From Betaproteobacteria bacterium SG8_41 (GTDB lineage Bacteria > Pseudomonadota > Gammaproteobacteria > Burkholderiales > SG8-41): DNA of 64,000 nt. Under the pieces are notes generated by a model. It searched no databases. It saw only the letters and a program-made list of their open reading frames with translations, and was not told the DNA's origin. The position numbers and the translations under genes were made by a program. Below, one piece after another: positions 15,182-60,573 of this stretch. The DNA lies in assembly GCA_001303585.1 (NCBI GenBank), contig LJTT01000002.1, forward strand, positions 5,837 through 69,836, read 5' to 3'. Position 1 is the first letter of the stretch, and every line of letters begins with the position of its first letter.

Positions 15182-15343
15182 GCCTCTGCCTCTCCAACGC
15201 ATGACAAGCCGCATCGCGTCGGCAGCCTGCGGCCTTCGCGGGTCGCATCCCCCTCAACCGGGGCCCCTGCTCCTCCGCTCATGTCGCGCCTCTGCCTCTC
15301 CAACGCACGACAAGCCGCATCGCGTCGGCAGCCCGCAGCCTGC
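15182..15343 (-). repeat. hairpin element copy A with flanking 56-bp direct duplication (X-Y-X structure)
   Basis: X copies at 15182-15237 and 15288-15343 differ at 4 positions. The core Y at 15238-15287 contains ggtcgcatccccctcaaccggggcccctgctcc. Confidence 0.8.
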
Positions 15344-15360
15344 GTGATGCCGCGTCAGAA

Positions 15361-23610: not shown

Positions 23611-23638
23611 TCCTGAATCCTGAGATCCGAATCCTGGA
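23611..23638. repeat. four tandem heptamers abutting the pilD start codon
   Basis: tcctgaa tcctgag atccgaa tcctgga, immediately followed by the ATG at 23638. Confidence 0.7.
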
Positions 23639-26425: not shown

Positions 26426-26600
26426 GGGTTCAAGTTTCAAGTTTGGGCGATGGCTGTACGCGAAGTTTCTCGCATTGAACTTCGAACATGGAACTTTGAA
26501 CCCGGAACTCGAAACTCGAAACTCGAAACTCGAAACTCGAAACTCGAAACTCGAAACTCGAAACTCGAAACTCGGAACCCGGAACCCGGAACATTGAACG
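26426..26600. repeat. asymmetric hairpin/microsatellite: GAAACTC heptamer array (9 perfect units plus degenerate flanks) opposite a short complementary arm
   Basis: The left arm is gttcaag tttcaag tttgggc (26426-26447). The right arm is a GAACNNN-type heptamer series from about 26474, with 9 exact GAAACTC units at 26511-26573, then ggaaccc x2. It lies between convergent yacG and the Nudix gene. Confidence 0.9.
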
Positions 26601-34446: not shown

Positions 34447-34458
34447 GACCCCGCCTAG

Positions 34459-34554
34459 TTCAAGGTTTCAGGTTCAAGGTTCAAGGTTCAACGTTCAAGG
34501 TTCGGCGCGAAGCTCGGAACTTTGAACTCGGAACTTTGGACATTGAATCCGGCG
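34459..34554. repeat. hairpin with GTTCAAG heptamer arms downstream of lpxC
   Basis: The left arm has 7 heptamers: gttcaag gtttcag gttcaag gttcaag gttcaac gttcaag gttcggc. The right arm is roughly complementary: ctcggaa ctttgaa ctcggaa ctttgga cattgaa tccggcg. Confidence 0.85.
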
Positions 34555-39062: not shown

Positions 39063-39974
39063 TTAGCCCACATGCGCCGACTCCAATATCCGCACGCACA
39101 AATCTTCAAACGAGACTCCTCTGGCGCGGGCCGCCATCGGCACCAGGCTGTGGTCCGTCATCCCCGGCACGGTGTTGACCTCGAGCAGGTAAGGATCGCC
39201 CGCACGGTCCAGCATCAGGTCGACGCGCCCCCAGCCGCAGCAGCCCAGAAGTTCGAAGGCGGCGAGGGCTACCTGGCGCATGCGTTGCTCCTCCGCGTCC
39301 GGCAATCCGCAAGGGCAGATATAGCGCGTGTCATCGGCGACGTATTTCGCCTGGTAGTCGTAAAACGTCCGCGGTGTCTCGAGGCGTATCAATGGCAGCG
39401 GCTCGTCGTCGAGAATTCCGGCAGTGAGCTCAACGCCCTCGATAAAGGCTTCGGCGATCACCGCCTTGTCATAGCGGGCGGCCAGCTCATACGCCTCGCC
39501 GAGCGCCTCGACCGACGCGGCCTTCGTCATGCCGATTGACGAGCCTTCGCTTGCGGGCTTCACCATCACCGGCAGTCCCAGTCGGTCCACCACCCGCAAG
39601 TAGTCGGTTCGCGGCGTGAGCAGCTCATAGGCCGGGGTTGGCATTCCGGCTGCCTGCCACAGGAGCTTGGTGCGCCACTTGTCCATGGCGAGCGCGCTCG
39701 CCATGACGCCACTGCCGGTATAGGGAATGCCGAGATATTCGAGCGCGCCCTGCACCGTTCCGTCTTCGCCGAAACGGCCGTGCAACGCGACAAAGGCGCG
39801 CTCGAATTTCCCGGCGGCGAGCTCGTCCAGCCGCTGCTCGCGCGGATCGAAGGCATGAGCATCCACACCGCTCCTCTTCAGGGCAGCGAGCACCATCGCC
39901 CCGCTCTTGAGCGAGATCTCCCTCTCGGCCGAGCGGCCGCCCATTAACACCGCGACCTTTCCAAAATTACCCAT
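39063..39974 (-). CDS. ddl: D-alanine--D-alanine ligase
   Basis: [22 protein letters not shown]...[14 protein letters not shown]...EVNTVPGMT. Confidence 0.95.
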
Positions 39975-40115
39975 CCATCACTCTCCGGCCTGCCCATTCG
40001 CTTGGGCATCCGCACGTGCACCTTCGGGGTCGCACCCCACCAAGAACGTGGGGCCCCTGCTCCGCCCTCCGGTGCCCCCGCCCATCAAGACCGCTACCTT
40101 TCCAAACTTGCTCAC
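39937..40115 (-). repeat. hairpin element copy B inside the ddl 5' end, with diverged duplication of the ddl start (X-Y-X)
   Basis: X copies at 39937-39974 and 40078-40115 have 31 of 38 positions identical. The core Y at 39975-40077 contains ggggtcgcaccccaccaagaacgtggggcccctgctcc. Confidence 0.8.
39978..40115 (-). CDS. leader ORF created by the duplication (45 codons; N-terminus mimics Ddl)
   Basis: The GTG at 40115, 6 nt after the murB stop, reads [14 protein letters not shown]..., runs through the element, and ends at the TGA at 39980-39978, 3 nt before the ddl ATG. Translation is untested. Confidence 0.35.
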   Translation of the reverse strand: MSKFGKVAVLMGGGTGGRSRGPTFLVGCDPEGARADAQANGQAGE

Positions 40116-40121
40116 GACCGT

Positions 40122-41111
40122 TCACCGTTCACCCACAATGCGCACTTCGCGCTCCAGTTCGATCCCGAACTTTTCGCGCACGCTGCGTTCCGCCAGCTCG
40201 ATGAGCGCCTCGATATCGGACGCGCTTGCCCCGCCGGTATTGACGATGAAGTTCGCGTGCTTATCCGAGATCTGTGCACCGCCGATGACGCGCCCCTTCA
40301 GCCCGCAGGCCTCGATCAGCCGCGCAGCGTAATCGTTCGGCGGATTGCGAAACACGGAACCGGCGTTGGGTTTCTCGAGCGGCTGCGTCGAGAGACGCCT
40401 TTGCAGCAGTCCCTTGATGATGCGGCGCGACGACTGGCGGTCGCCGCGGGGAAGACGGAAGATCGCGGCAACGAACCATTCTTTGGGCCGATCGGGGGTG
40501 AACGATAGAGAGTCAGGCTCGCCGGTTTCTGGTACCGGTTGCCCCACGCCTTGATCCTTCAGGCGCACGTGGCGGTAGTCGATCTCGTAGTCCTCCGGAA
40601 AACGCTCGCGCAAGGTGCCGCTGCGATCGATCGTCACTGCACGCGCCACGATCTTCCAGGTCTCGCCGCCGAAACAGCCTGCATTCATCGCGAGCGCGCC
40701 GCCCACCGTGCCCGGTATGCCCGCGAGGAATTCCGCCCCCCTGAAACCATGCATTGCCGCAAAGCGCGCGACTTTCGGGCTCGCGATGCCGGCCTCGGCG
40801 TAGATCTCGCCGTGCCCGTTTTCGACGCGCCCGACCCGGATCGCCCGCAGCGCCCACTGCATCAGGATCACCGTGCCGCGCACGCCCGCGTCGCGCACCA
40901 GCAGGTTGCTCCCGAGGCCCACGATGTGCACCGGCTCGCTCACCGACAGGGAACGCAGGAAGGCGGTCAGATCGTCGAGGTCGGCCGGAAAATACGCCCG
41001 GTCCGCGGGACCGCCGACGCGCCAGCTCGTGTGGCGCGCCATCGGCTCGTCCTGCCGCAGCTCCCCGCGCAGAGTCACGACCCGTTTCTCAGGGTCCGTT
41101 ATCGCGTTCAT
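40122..41111 (-). CDS. murB: UDP-N-acetylenolpyruvoylglucosamine reductase
   Basis: [11 protein letters not shown]...GLGSNLLV...GSVFRNP. The start overlaps the murC stop. Confidence 0.95.
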
Positions 41112-42538
41112 GCCGCTCCTCCGTTTACGCTGCGCACCCGGTTTGCGAGTTGGATGGCCACAGTGCCTATGGAACCCGCGCCCATCGTGAGCACCACATC
41201 GCCGTCGCGCGCCAATGCCAGGATCTCAGCCGGCAACTGGGACACCTTTTCCACAAAGACCGGTTCCACCTTGCCCTGCACCCTCACAGCCCGTGCAAGC
41301 GCCCGCCCATCGGCCGCCACGATGGGCGCCTCACCCGCCGCGTAAACCTCGGTCAGAATGACCGCGTCCGCTGTGGAAAGGACCGTGACGAAGTCCTCGA
41401 AGCAATCGCGGGTGCGCGTGTAGCGATGGGGCTGGAATGCAAGCAGAAGCCTTCGCTTCGGGAAAGCGCCGCGCGCCGCCGCCAGCGTCGCTGCCATCTC
41501 CGCGGGATGGTGGCCGTAATCGTCAATCAGCGTGAAGCTGCCTCCGCCCGGCAGCCGCACCTTTCCGAACTGCTGGAAGCGGCGGCCGACTCCCTTGAAC
41601 TGGGCGAGCGCCCGGGCGATCTTCTTCTCGGGCACACCCAGCTCCAGACCGACGGCAACCGCCGCGAGCGCATTGCGCACGTTGTGCACGCCCGGAAGGT
41701 TGAGCGTAATGGCCAGCTTGCCGTTGCCGGACGCGGCGCCTGAAGGGCCCGACCGCTCGACCTGGAAGCGCATTTGCCCGCCACTCGCGATCACGTCAAC
41801 AGCGCGTACATGCGCGTCAGGAGAAAGTCCGTAGGGAGTGACCGGCTTGCTCAACTGGGGCATGATGGTCCGGACGTTCGGGTCATCGATGCAAAGGACG
41901 GCCATGCCGTAGAACGGCAGGCGCTGCAGGAAATCGACAAATGCCTGCCGCAGCTTGTCCAGAGAATGGTCATAGGTCTCCATGTGGTCAGCGTCGATAT
42001 TGGTGACCACGGCGACCACGGGTTGCAGGTAAAGGAAAGATGCGTCGGATTCATCGGCTTCGGCCACGATGAACTCGCCGGCACCGAGCTTGGCATTGCT
42101 GCCCGCCGCTTCGAGCCTGCCACCGATCACGAACGTGGGATCCAGTCCGCCTTCCGCGAGCACGCTCGCGACGAGACTGGTCGTGGTGGTCTTGCCATGG
42201 GTGCCGGCCACCGCGATGCCTTGTTTCAGCCGCATCAACTCGGCGAGCATCAGCGCCCGCGGAACCACCGGGACCTTCGCGCCGCGCGCGGCAACGACCT
42301 CGGGGTTGTCGTCCCGCACAGCACTCGATATGACGACCGCGTCGGCGCCCGCGACATGCTCGGCGGAGTGACCGCTGCGGATGCGGGCGCCAAGCCCGCG
42401 CAAGCGGCGCGTCACCGCGTTGTCCGCAAGATCGGAGCCACTCACCGCGTAACCGAGATTGAGCAGCACCTCGGCGATGCCGCACATGCCGGCGCCGCCT
42501 ATCCCCACGAAATGCACATGCTTCACCTTGTGTTTCAT
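41108..42538 (-). CDS. murC: UDP-N-acetylmuramate--L-alanine ligase
   Basis: [25 protein letters not shown]...[12 protein letters not shown] at 42538 with an AAGGAG SD. Confidence 0.95.
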
Positions 42539-42744
42539 CGGCGGCAGCTCCTTGCCCGCGACACGACACAGCCGGCGGCCCACGCCGATCGCGGCCGGTC
42601 GCATCCCCTCGCAAAAACCGCAAGGGGCCCCTGCTCCCTGCTCTCAGCGGTCCCGCCTATCCCCACGAAATGCACATGCTTCACCTTGTGTTTCATCGGC
42701 GGCAGCTCCTTGCCCGCGACACGACACAGCCGGCGGCCGACGCC
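42495..42744 (-). repeat. hairpin element copy C inside the murC 5' end, with a 92-bp near-perfect duplication (X-Y-X)
   Basis: X copies at 42495-42586 and 42653-42744 differ at a single position (42581 c versus 42739 g). The core Y at 42587-42652 contains ggtcgcatcccctcgcaaaaaccgcaaggggcccctgctcc. Confidence 0.9.
42535..42696 (-). CDS. leader ORF created by the duplication (53 codons; first 15 residues identical to MurC)
   Basis: The ATG at 42696 carries a duplicated SD. The ORF reads [15 protein letters not shown], crosses the element, changes frame relative to murC, and stops at a TGA that overlaps the genuine murC ATG (ATGA at 42538-42535). Translation is untested. Confidence 0.35.
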
Positions 42745-42782
42745 ACCTGAGCCCGGTCTGCGTTCTGCCTTCTGCCTTCGGG

Positions 42783-49174: not shown

Positions 49175-50676
49175 AGGGCTGCGAGCGCCTCCCGCGCCAC
49201 CGCTGCGTCGGAGAAAGGATGCTTCACACCCTCGATCTCCTGGTAGTTCTCGTGGCCCTTGCCTGCGACGAGCACAATATCGCCCCGTTGCGCGCCGGCG
49301 ATCGCGGCCTCGATGGCATCGCGGCGGTCGGCGTTGACACAAAGTTCTCGTTTTCCGCGGCGCGCCCCTTCGAGGATGTCCACGATGATCGCGTGCGGAT
49401 CCTCGCTGCGCGGATTGTCGGAAGTGACCACTACGCTGTCGGCAAGACGCGCAGCGATCCGCCCCATTTGCGGGCGCTTTCCGCGGTCACGGTCACCGCC
49501 GCAACCAAATACGCAGATGAGGCGTGACGGGTGACCGGTGACCGGTGACCGGTGGAGCATGAGCTCGCGCAGGGAGCGCAGCACCTTCTCCAGGGCATCG
49601 GGCGTGTGCGCGTAGTCAACGACCACCAGCGGTTTTGCGCCACCGCCGACCCGCTGCATGCGTCCAGGCAATGGCTTGAGGCGCGCCAGCGCCGCGACAC
49701 CACGCCGCAGCGTGACACCGCTCGCCAGGAGCACCGCGAGTGTGCCCAGCAGGTTGGACGCGTTGAAACGGCCAAGCGCCGGGCTCACGACCCGCGCCGA
49801 TCCCCATGGCGTTTTCACGCGGAAGCTGATTCCGCTCATATCCGTGCGCACGTCGGTGCCGGAAACCAGGATCGCGCGCGTGGCGCGCGCGCTGCCAAAC
49901 CCGTAGCCGATCACTCTGAGTCCCGGCCGCCGGATCCGTCCTGCCAGGTGCACCCCGAACTCGTCATCGAGGTTGACGACCGCGTGCTGCAGCGAATCCC
50001 AGGCAAAGAGCTTCGCCTTCGCCTCGCGATATCGCCGCATCGTGCGGTGGTATTCGAGGTGATCGCGCGAGAGGTTCGTGAACAGCGCAACATCGAACTC
50101 CACGCCGGCGACGCGGTCCTGATCGAGGCCGATCGACGAGACTTCCATGCTGACGGCTTGCGCGCCGCGCCGTGCAAATTCAGCCAGCTGCGAATGCAGC
50201 CAGACGGCGTCCGGCGTAGTGTTCGCCACGGGGCGCAACGGCGGGCGCAGGCCGTATCCGAGCGTGCCAATCACCGCGCAACGCCGTCCCGCGGCGCTCA
50301 GCGCCTGTGCGATCCACTGGCTGCACGTGGTCTTCCCGTTGGTGCCGCTCACCCCGACAACCCACAGCCGGCTGCTCGGCTCGGAGCAGACGCGGCTCGC
50401 GATCTCTCCCGCATACCGGCGCAGGTTTCGCACTGAAAGGTTGGGCACCTTGCAGCGCGCATCCCATGCGTATCCCTTGCGCTCCCATAACACCGAAACT
50501 GCGCCGCGTGCGATCGCTTCGGCAATGAAGTCACGGCCATCGCGTGTTTCGCCCGGGTACGCCACAAAAGTGTCGCCGGGCCTCACCGCACGGCTGTCGC
50601 AGGCAAGCCGGGAAATGCGCAGCGCGTCGACTGCTTTCCAGTCGACCGCTCCGGCCGGTGCGTATTCATGTCTCAA
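49171..50676 (-). CDS. murE: UDP-N-acetylmuramoyl-L-alanyl-D-glutamate--2,6-diaminopimelate ligase
   Basis: VSGTNGKTT...DYAHTPDALEKVL...FGCGGDRDRGKRP...DNPR. Confidence 0.95.
   Translation of the reverse strand: MRHEYAPAGAVDWKAVDALRISRLACDSRAVRPGDTFVAYPGETRDGRDFIAEAIARGAVSVLWERKGYAWDARCKVPNLSVRNLRRYAGEIASRVCSEPSSRLWVVGVSGTNGKTTCSQWIAQALSAAGRRCAVIGTLGYGLRPPLRPVANTTPDAVWLHSQLAEFARRGAQAVSMEVSSIGLDQDRVAGVEFDVALFTNLSRDHLEYHRTMRRYREAKAKLFAWDSLQHAVVNLDDEFGVHLAGRIRRPGLRVIGYGFGSARATRAILVSGTDVRTDMSGISFRVKTPWGSARVVSPALGRFNASNLLGTLAVLLASGVTLRRGVAALARLKPLPGRMQRVGGGAKPLVVVDYAHTPDALEKVLRSLRELMLHRSPVTGHPSRLICVFGCGGDRDRGKRPQMGRIAARLADSVVVTSDNPRSEDPHAIIVDILEGARRGKRELCVNADRRDAIEAAIAGAQRGDIVLVAGKGHENYQEIEGVKHPFSDAAVAREALAAL
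49524..49558. repeat. heptamer array (GTGACCG x3 exact, plus degenerate flanking units) inside the murE coding sequence
   Basis: gtgacgg gtgaccg gtgaccg gtgaccg gtggagc. On the coding strand this encodes LHRSPVTGHPS. Confidence 0.85.
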
Positions 50677-54439: not shown

Positions 54440-54977
<538 letters not shown>

Positions 54978-56696: not shown

Positions 56697-56795
56697 CGGG
56701 GAATAGTAAATGGGGAATGGGGAATAGTAAAACCAGGCGCGCGCGCAGATCAGTCATTCGCACTTCGCACTTCCCATTTCCTATTTCCCATGTCC
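56697..56795. repeat. hairpin with GGGGAAT-type repeat arms between pyrC and rsmI
   Basis: ggggaatagtaaatggggaatggggaatag faces cacttcgcacttcccatttcctatttcccat. Confidence 0.75.
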
Positions 56796-60480: not shown

Positions 60481-60573
60481 ATGGGTGATGGGCGATGGGC
60501 GATGGGCGATGACCGAACGCCGTTGGTTTAGACGCGGTTGCCGTTCACGATTCCCGATTTCCCATTCCCTGTT
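60481..60573. repeat. hairpin with GGGCGAT / GGGAAAT repeat arms between convergent genes
   Basis: atgggtgatgggcgatgggcgatgggcgatgacc faces cacgattcccgatttcccattccctg. Confidence 0.8.

Follow-up and report, generated by a model that had tools for sequence, protein, structure and literature searches.

At the murB-ddl junction of Betaproteobacteria bacterium SG8_41 (contig LJTT01000002.1) the beginning of ddl is written twice, and the question raised by the locus is how an essential gene came to have two starts whose divergence is almost purely synonymous. The whole 64,000-nucleotide (nt) stretch of DNA that was analysed is referred to as the window; all junction coordinates are on its minus strand. 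The upstream copy of the start (T1) and the true start (T2) were found to flank a small structured element, here called E, and an open reading frame (ORF) that begins at T1 runs through E and ends at ddl. The reading preferred here, to which a probability of roughly 0.6 is assigned as a whole, is that E inserted into ddl with duplication of its target and that the upstream start drives a translational relay ORF. Numbers prefixed with L and P denote loci and proteins of relatives (for example L001, P0006).

The duplicated ddl start

A direct-repeat search of the window returned T1 and T2 as a 37-nt pair with 84% identity (31/37) at a spacing of 141 (Table 1). The GTG of T1 sits 6 nt past the murB TGA. 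As described in the original prediction, the two copies differ in the start codon, at 3 nt in codons 2-3 and at three synonymous third positions (GTA/GTC, GTC/GTG, TTG/TTA). The probability of at least 31/37 matches was 1e-12 per pair. About 2.6e-5 such repeats were expected within 400 nt across the whole window, and none was found in five composition-preserving shuffles, against six segments observed. The similarity is thus above chance, and the proposed duplication was borne out, the same architecture being present in independent assemblies. Because these assemblies of relatives (L001, L002/L003, L208/L209/L210 and L214) share it, the junction is not an assembly artefact. The 45-codon leader ORF that had been noted, with its TGA 3 nt before the ddl ATG, was likewise found.

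Table 1. Coordinates of the murB-ddl junction, the murC start and the 15.2-kb locus. Gene order on the minus strand is murC, murB, ddl, ftsQ, ftsA.
Feature	Position	Strand	Remarks
murC	to 41108	-	
murB	41111-40122	-	
ddl	39974-39063	-	
murB stop TGA	40124-40122	-	
T1, upstream ddl-start copy	40115-40078	-	reads GTGAGCAAGTTTGGAAAGGTAGCGGTCTTGATGGGCGG; GTG at 40115-40113
Element E at ddl	40013..40079	-	covariance-model match, 55.1 bits, E-value 5.7e-10
3' extension of ddl insert	39987..40015	-	reads GTGCGGATGCCCAAGCGAATGGGCAGGCC
GGAGAG TGA TGG	39975..39986	-	carries ddl Shine-Dalgarno and relay-ORF stop
Relay (leader) ORF, 45 codons	40115..39978	-	T1 GTG through E to TGA 39980-39978, then TGG, then ddl ATG
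T2, true ddl start	39974-39937	-	reads ATGGGTAATTTTGGAAAGGTCGCGGTGTTAATGGGCGG; 141 nt downstream of T1
murC upstream duplicate	42648..42758	-	5' untranslated region and first 15 murC codons; ATG 42696-42694
Second E copy	42582..42653	-	after murC codon 15 (…ATAGGCGG); 51.9 bits, E-value 2.9e-9
murC relay ORF, 53 codons	42535..42696	-	TGA 42537-42535 overlaps true ATG 42538-42536 as ATGA
murC downstream duplicate	42490..42600	-	contains true murC start
15.2-kb locus, between rplS and 556-aa gene	15182..15344	-	duplicate 15288-15344, E 15226-15289, second duplicate 15182-15238

The E copy at ddl is built of an outer stem (GGCACC/GGTGC), an internal loop formed by GGAG/AAG, and a P2 stem; after these come AGCAGGGG, then the hairpin CCCCAC-GTTCTTG-GTGGGG, then TGCGAC. 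It carries one deletion, in which the conserved A of GGGGATGCGAC is lost. In the 3' extension of the insert the target junction recurs in inverted and degenerate form; this inverted copy is easier to make out in L002, L139 and L168 (GGCCGCCCA...).

The GGAGAG Shine-Dalgarno lies 8 nt upstream of the ddl start and had been taken to be element-derived. Together with the TGA TGG that follows, it is most likely the duplicated 3' end of murB, and so host rather than element sequence. The murB end of L004, L211 and L214 reads ...GGA GAG GCG TGA, followed by heptamer repeats and then the ddl start, and loci that carry the insertion have GGAGAG-TGA-TGA/TGG just upstream of the true ddl start. Because the GGAGAG-TGA of the carriers matches these murB ends, the duplicated target most likely began in the last murB codons.

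No promoter or terminator was predicted at the murB-ddl junction, and no terminator-like site was found in 39800-40300. A leader peptide of the attenuation type was rejected, given the lack of a terminator-like site in that interval and the unconserved middle of the peptide.

Element E and its other sites

E is a rod-shaped hairpin of ~65 nt with the core GGAGCAGGGGCCCC-loop-GGGGATGCGAC. Three exact matches to the 14-mer GGAGCAGGGGCCCC lie in the window, all on the minus strand and each flanked by a target duplication of 37-111 nt. When the ddl junction was compared with the rest of the window by BLAST, the murC start and the 15.2-kb locus turned up as similar. A covariance model of E matched precisely these three copies in the window (E-values of 1.3e-8 or lower), with nothing else below an E-value of 1. 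The duplication is 111 nt long at murC (92% identity, spacing 158) and 57 nt long at 15.2 kb (93% identity, spacing 106). The ddl duplication is one instance of a rule, T1-E-T2, in which the element lies in a duplication of its target.

At murC the element and the duplication are also present in L001, and the site is empty in L002 and L004. Copies of a 92-nt murC unit are 96-99% identical within a genome and 77-81% identical between the window and L001; the murC E copies have diverged between these two genomes to about the same degree. The murC duplicates evolve in concert, a pattern that indicates gene conversion. The longest murC ORF (41108-42604, 498 aa) begins at an ATG inside the element (GGGGATGCGACC). 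Homology and the duplicated unit place the true start at the ATG 42538-42536 (476 aa), and automatic annotation of murC would probably gain a false N-terminus from the element ATG.

Genomes were scanned with the core pattern, one genome per species. At least 120 E loci were found, nearly all in betaproteobacterial metagenome-assembled genomes (MAGs) of Burkholderiales, Casimicrobiaceae, Nitrosomonadales, Thiobacillus, Gallionella and Sulfuricella. Tandem arrays, with periods of 100-136 nt, account for many of them. The family was defined by a covariance model (R1), and 127 copies were aligned. Across them the invariant core is AGCAGGGG-CCCC...GGGG-ATGCGAC, enclosed in P2 and a covarying outer stem. 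The apical stem P3 also covaries (GC 73, AU 30, plus UA, CG and others). The 5' and 3' flanks of the same copy pair at -17.4 kcal/mol, compared with -12.6 kcal/mol for mismatched flanks (p = 4e-27). Per-copy duplex energies were used here in place of one outer-stem register for all subfamilies, which fitted only ~40% of cells. The sense strand out-folds the antisense strand in 113/127 copies, as expected if G-U pairs count, which suggests that the structure of E is important as RNA.

At gathering thresholds, Rfam 15 matched only RNase P in the whole window; the match, at 54446-54977 on the minus strand, is to bacterial RNase P RNA class A (274 bits). Rfam searches at E-values up to 10, covering the ddl region and the L016 array, gave chance matches only, and a literature search by E core sequence returned only unrelated primer matches.

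Tandem arrays of three to five units were seen in L016 (5580-5950), L070 (3160-3650), L029 (1660-1965), L051 and L085. They start directly past the stop of the upstream gene (often as TAG followed by CG) and finish with a Shine-Dalgarno-like GGAGGCCG before the next gene. Periods that are a multiple of 3 (117, 114, 108) leave two frames open, and periods of 115 or 136 close all frames.

Occupied and empty ddl sites in relatives

The Ddl of the window is identical to the one recorded for Betaproteobacteria bacterium SG8_41. An insertion at the same ddl site was found in L001 and L002/L003 (Ddl protein 90% identical to that of the window in both cases), L208/L209/L210 (88%) and L214 (85%). The orthologous site is empty in L004-L007 (84%), L211 (84%) and L212/L213 (85%). 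In ddl nucleotide identity the carriers form a group 81-96% alike and the empty lineages fall outside it, so the ddl insertion is old and inherited. T1 stands at the normal ddl position, as had been suggested: in the empty site of L212 the ddl GTG overlaps the murB TGA, and in L128-L130 ddl starts a few nt after the murB stop. A metagenome scan with Ddl added relatives of at most 79% identity among the matches listed, including L139, L147 and L168.

Between carriers, E has changed less than the coding DNA that surrounds it, with 92-95% identity between L214 and L208 compared with ~83% for ddl. L002, in which the core has decayed, is an exception.

In an ancestor of the lineage, E inserted after ddl codon 13. 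A direct duplication of the target, at least 38 nt and probably ~55-60 nt long, came with it; its likely limits are the last codons of murB, whose stop is included, and ddl codon 13. Downstream of E the ddl start, Shine-Dalgarno included, was thereby rebuilt intact, which let the essential ddl survive.

Two of the more distant loci differ in detail. In L168 (3370-3525; Ddl 62% identical) the ddl start is duplicated at the same codon, and the copies agree at 37/38 positions. The E model does not recognise the insert, which holds an inverted target copy (CCGCCCATCA...TTTCCA), giving a direct-inverted-direct arrangement. In L147 (275-523) two E copies of opposite orientation lie between murB and ddl, and ~11 nt of target is duplicated.

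Ddl is called with 293 aa from an internal MGG in the gene calls of L004-L007 and in P0015, P0019, P0024 and P0026. The real ddl start of L004 is a GTG after the heptamer repeats; the short calls look like a shortfall of annotation and not a biological difference. This serves as an annotation warning, as these ddl relatives are called 10 residues short.

Tandem heptamer repeats were also observed in the window at 58-91, 23611-23636, 26429-26592, 34458-34535, 40117-40133, 42757-42779, 49524-49554, 56698-56795 and 60481-60511. Examples are AACTCGA x10, GTTCAAG x6.6, GTGACCG x4.4 and ATGGGCG x4.4. Both arrays that were checked stand at gene boundaries: one, GTGAACG x2.4 (40117-40133), is located at the murB stop, the other, AGGCAGA, behind that of murG. 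Relatives have other heptamers (CCCGTGA, CCAGTGA) at the same junctions. Intergenic heptamer arrays of a similar kind have been reported from Beggiatoaceae, Xanthomonas and Nostoc.

The proposed relay reading frame

The position of the first stop of the ORF that opens at the duplicated start was recorded relative to the true start codon. At ddl it falls at -6 in the window, L001 and L214, at -3 in L002, at -22 after a 1-nt insertion in L208, at +5 in L139 and at +1 (ATGA) in L168 and L147. The ORF of L147 has 82 codons, crosses two E copies and begins at an ATG overlapping the murB stop. At murC the stop is at +1 (ATGA) in the window, L001 and L118, with spacings of 158 and 149, and at hslR in L017 it is at +1 (TTGA). 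Counting one lineage per independent event, insertions at 5' ends (ddl, murC and hslR) have their stop within -6 to +5 in 7/7 cases, compared with 1/14 for the alternative frames (Fisher, p = 7e-5). By lineage, the relay stop lies within these limits in 11 of 12. In the window, two compensating 1-nt indels, one of them the lost A of GGGGATGCGAC, hold the 141-nt spacing in frame. It seems that an insertion at a gene start persists only if the old coupled start and the new one are joined by an ORF.

Overlapping or abutting stops and starts are characteristic of translational coupling (review PMC12548453). The murB stop and the ddl start overlap as GTGA in L212 and L168 and as ATGA in L147. The upstream copy would keep this original murB-coupled start and open the 45-codon ORF through the hairpin. 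Ribosomes leaving murB would re-initiate at the old start, unwind E, terminate at the ddl start and re-initiate there. It is proposed that murB-ddl coupling is preserved across the 141-nt structured insert because ribosomes relay through the ORF. From its geometry and recurrence, the relay ORF is probably both translated and needed, and it would be the act of translation that counts and not the peptide. The leader ORF of the original prediction would then matter for where it ends (7/7 compared with 1/14), its product probably not.

Several points weigh against this reading. All the organisms are uncultured MAGs, compared at the sequence level. E is GC-rich and almost stop-free in every frame, and gene boundaries are stop-rich, so the ORF architecture may be partly structural. 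The frameshift in L208 put the stop at -22 without evident harm. With its own GGAGAG Shine-Dalgarno, ddl may not need coupling. Gene conversion, on which the explanation of the synonymous pattern draws (see below), is hard to invoke for pairs only 77-81% identical (L118, L091), and allelic recombination must be assumed for these.

The freedom from stops and the tolerance of the -22 stop in L208 would also suit a neutral relic. The insertion would then be as described, the upstream copy and the ORF would do nothing, ddl would use its own Shine-Dalgarno, and the stop position would come from the duplicated murB stop. The duplicated segment does include a stop beside or overlapping the start (GGAGAG-TGA, ATGA), and the leader region as a whole folds no more stably than shuffled sequence (z-score ~0). 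We nevertheless consider a relic unlikely. Two of every three frames would miss the duplicated stop, yet all seven events end at the start, compared with 1/14 in the alternative frames, and the frame has been kept through the indels of the window and across 245 nt in L147.

Synonymous divergence of the two copies

Between T1 and T2 in the window, the proportion of synonymous differences (pS) is 0.60 and that of non-synonymous differences (pN) is 0.07. The almost purely synonymous divergence reported in the original prediction extends to the orthologues. The upstream copies of the five clade members (window, L001, L002, L208 and L214) have six variable sites in the ten shared Ddl codons, all of them synonymous.

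Such a pattern could arise from purifying selection on the 45-residue leader peptide, or on its Ddl-like N-terminus, for a function in regulation or mimicry. The pS and pN values of the two copies in the window are what this would give, as are the orthologous upstream copies, with no non-synonymous differences and one to five synonymous ones. The rest of the peptide has not behaved accordingly. Its central third is read in another frame in the window than in L001 and L214 (GTGGRSRGPTFLVG vs VPEGGAGAPRSLRG), the middle in L002 is unrelated, and L147 shows this ORF architecture although just three codons of Ddl, M-S-K, are retained there. An excess of pS over pN was also found at the duplicated starts of murC (L118: 0.83 vs 0.03) and hslR (L017), and concerted evolution was seen at murC. 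The same excess (pS 0.59 vs pN 0.06) is shown by an orphan copy of a gene 3' end in L091, which lies on the opposite strand and has neither an open frame nor a start codon. A selected, Ddl-mimicking peptide, one of the two sources named in the original prediction, is very unlikely on these grounds.

The other source named there, a diverged homologue, would have supplied one copy by recombination from another lineage, either the upstream copy or the element together with the downstream copy. L214 is in fact a mosaic, in which the murB end and the upstream copy are of the empty-site type of L004/L211 and the element and downstream copy share 95-100% identity with L208. The history of E is also decoupled from that of ddl in L002 compared with L208, and the L091 and L118 pairs would be accounted for too. 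In the window, codon 10 carries a derived T in both ddl copies (TTG, TTA), where other lineages have CTG. The T1 residues SKF match the N-terminus of the real Ddl in the closest relatives (P0006, P0010 and P0027). A foreign donor is not needed, because SKF is the state of the nearest relatives, and it is the functional copy, not the upstream one, that changed to GNF in the lineage of the window and L001. Recombination from another lineage cannot by itself explain why the upstream copy has stayed conserved at the codon level throughout a clade 81-87% identical in ddl, and a foreign origin of either copy is highly improbable.

Gene conversion or recombination appears to explain the synonymous-only pattern better than a selected peptide. 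The mosaic make-up of L214 and the derived T common to both ddl copies of the window point the same way. T1 and T2 would differ mainly at synonymous sites because the upstream copy has repeatedly been overwritten from selected sequence, with the functional copy as donor in gene conversion or functional alleles as donors in recombination. Gene conversion would here yield selection-like synonymous patterns in non-functional duplicates.

Origin of the insertion

The lengths of the duplications across loci are 28, 29, 35, 37, 41, 47, 51, 53, 57, 61, 74, 94, 111 and 123 nt. Duplications were found at 5' and 3' gene ends and in either orientation, and many E copies elsewhere are without a visible duplication. 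Junctions in L025 and L045 run into element-like sequence. Inverted copies of the target junction were found in L013 (10 nt), L017 (11 nt), L044 (8 nt) and L168 (13 nt). Because of the variable lengths, the occurrence at both gene ends and in both orientations, the element-like junctions and the inverted target copies, replicative template switching is tentatively preferred, with selection filtering for rebuilt gene ends. The features would fit this better than staggered cleavage by a transposase. A transposon with target-site duplication was rejected as a candidate, the duplications being neither fixed nor short (28-123 nt) and no terminal inverted repeats being evident.

In L013, L017 and L044 the inverted copies are exact (8-11 nt), represent the uninterrupted target across the insertion point and lie 15-30 nt past the element core; in L013 even the hairpin's own outer stem corresponds to target sequence. 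The idea that every insert holds an inverted copy of the target junction was dropped, as the effect was not significant over 14 loci (p = 0.06), and it is kept as a lead only.

In L091, L045, L058, L103 and L025 the element lies in the last codons of a gene, on either strand, and the 3' end of the gene is duplicated. The orphan copy of L091 (~470-690, minus orientation) keeps frame and stop (ADIEQTMVIGAHGPYRVHVILVA followed by the stop); 10 of its differences are synonymous and 3 non-synonymous. The orphan 3'-end copy of L045 has a frameshift.

Tentatively, and with the odds against it, E may be a bacterial mobile element of a kind not described before, small and non-coding, with a hairpin structure at the RNA level. 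It would spread by copy choice or template switching, possibly templated by RNA, and would leave long duplications of variable length (28-123 nt), sometimes with an inverted copy of the junction. A literature search on long target duplications returned only eukaryotic elements and the IS1202 family. If true, E could land inside the ends of essential genes, each insertion rebuilding the gene end and a relay ORF. This would be a 'self-rescuing' strategy of insertion, distinct from the short duplications made by transposases.

Comparison with known repeats

From their described arrangement, MIRUs (mycobacterial interspersed repetitive units) appear to be closest in function to the E insertions. 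They are short intercistronic repeats, sometimes tandem, found at gene starts in operons, with an ORF that overlaps the host start by 4 nt, and the arrangement is thought to permit insertion with little effect on expression (PMC12548453). A coupled ORF is common to both, the stop lying 3 nt before the ATG at ddl and overlapping it as ATGA at murC. The relay ORF of E starts at the duplicated host start, whereas that of a MIRU starts inside the repeat. E is further distinguished by its flanking target duplication of 28-123 nt, its conserved rod-like hairpin and its betaproteobacterial host, which is of another phylum; E is thus set apart from MIRU by description and architecture.

BRE, the Beta-proteobacterial repeat element known from Bordetella and other Betaproteobacteria, is the closest to E in kind and host. 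It is a GC-rich betaproteobacterial repeat of ~90 bp that is mostly intergenic, often forms tandem arrays of variable copy number and is transcribed (Hot et al., 2011; PMC3110155). It sometimes overlaps the ends of ORFs or lies within them, and its function and mobility are unknown (PMC3110155). E resembles it in the betaproteobacterial host, the intergenic location, the variable tandem arrays and the occasional overlap with ORF ends. The BRE consensus (TTTTTTTGGCCGCGGGCCGCCCAAGGCAAAAAAGCCCCCTTGGGGGGCAGCAAGCCCGC...) differs from E. The published list of BRE sequences contains none of the E core words GGGGCCCC, AGCAGGGG and GATGCGAC, and no E core 8-mer. Neither target duplication nor a coupled ORF is reported for BRE (PMC3110155). 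The 12-mer GGCCGCCCAAGG was considered as a module linking E to BRE and rejected, since it is specific to ddl inserts (5/162 in the family).

REP/REPIN, ERIC and Correia/NEMIS sequences are dispersed, hairpin-forming, co-transcribed repeats that follow coding regions, some lying inside genes, and probably act as RNA (PMC3733652). Hairpin and co-transcription are shared by E and by REP/REPIN, ERIC and Correia sequences; its long duplications are the difference. REPs, REPINs and Correia elements are not known to have any target duplication beyond one of 2 nt. A survey paper on REPs makes no mention of target duplication. REPs and REPINs mobilised by RAYT are palindromes of 20-40 nt ending in a GTAG or CGTC tag, with the RAYT gene lying between repeats. 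E has an internal GNAG loop, and no terminal GTAG or CGTC tag was recognised in it. Inverted E pairs enclose ordinary genes (RidA-like, HypC) and no transposase. No RAYT was found next to the E copies, although a whole-genome search for RAYT was not made.

Target-site duplications of classical transposons have a fixed length of 2-15 nt. E shares with them the direct repeat of the target around an inserted mobile sequence. Its duplications are long and variable (28 to ~123 nt), no transposase or terminal inverted repeats are evident, and the inverted copy of the target junction that some inserts carry (L013, L017, L044 and L168) points to template switching.

Significance

REP, ERIC, BRE and MIRU repeats are abundant, and how they move and how their hosts tolerate them is mostly unknown. 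The E family offers a repeatable picture of insertion into the first codons of essential cell-wall genes. Such an insertion would be tolerated because the long duplication rebuilds the gene start and because the old start opens an ORF that terminates at the new start. This gives a testable rule for how the translation of an operon may survive structured insertions, and a natural source of upstream ORFs.

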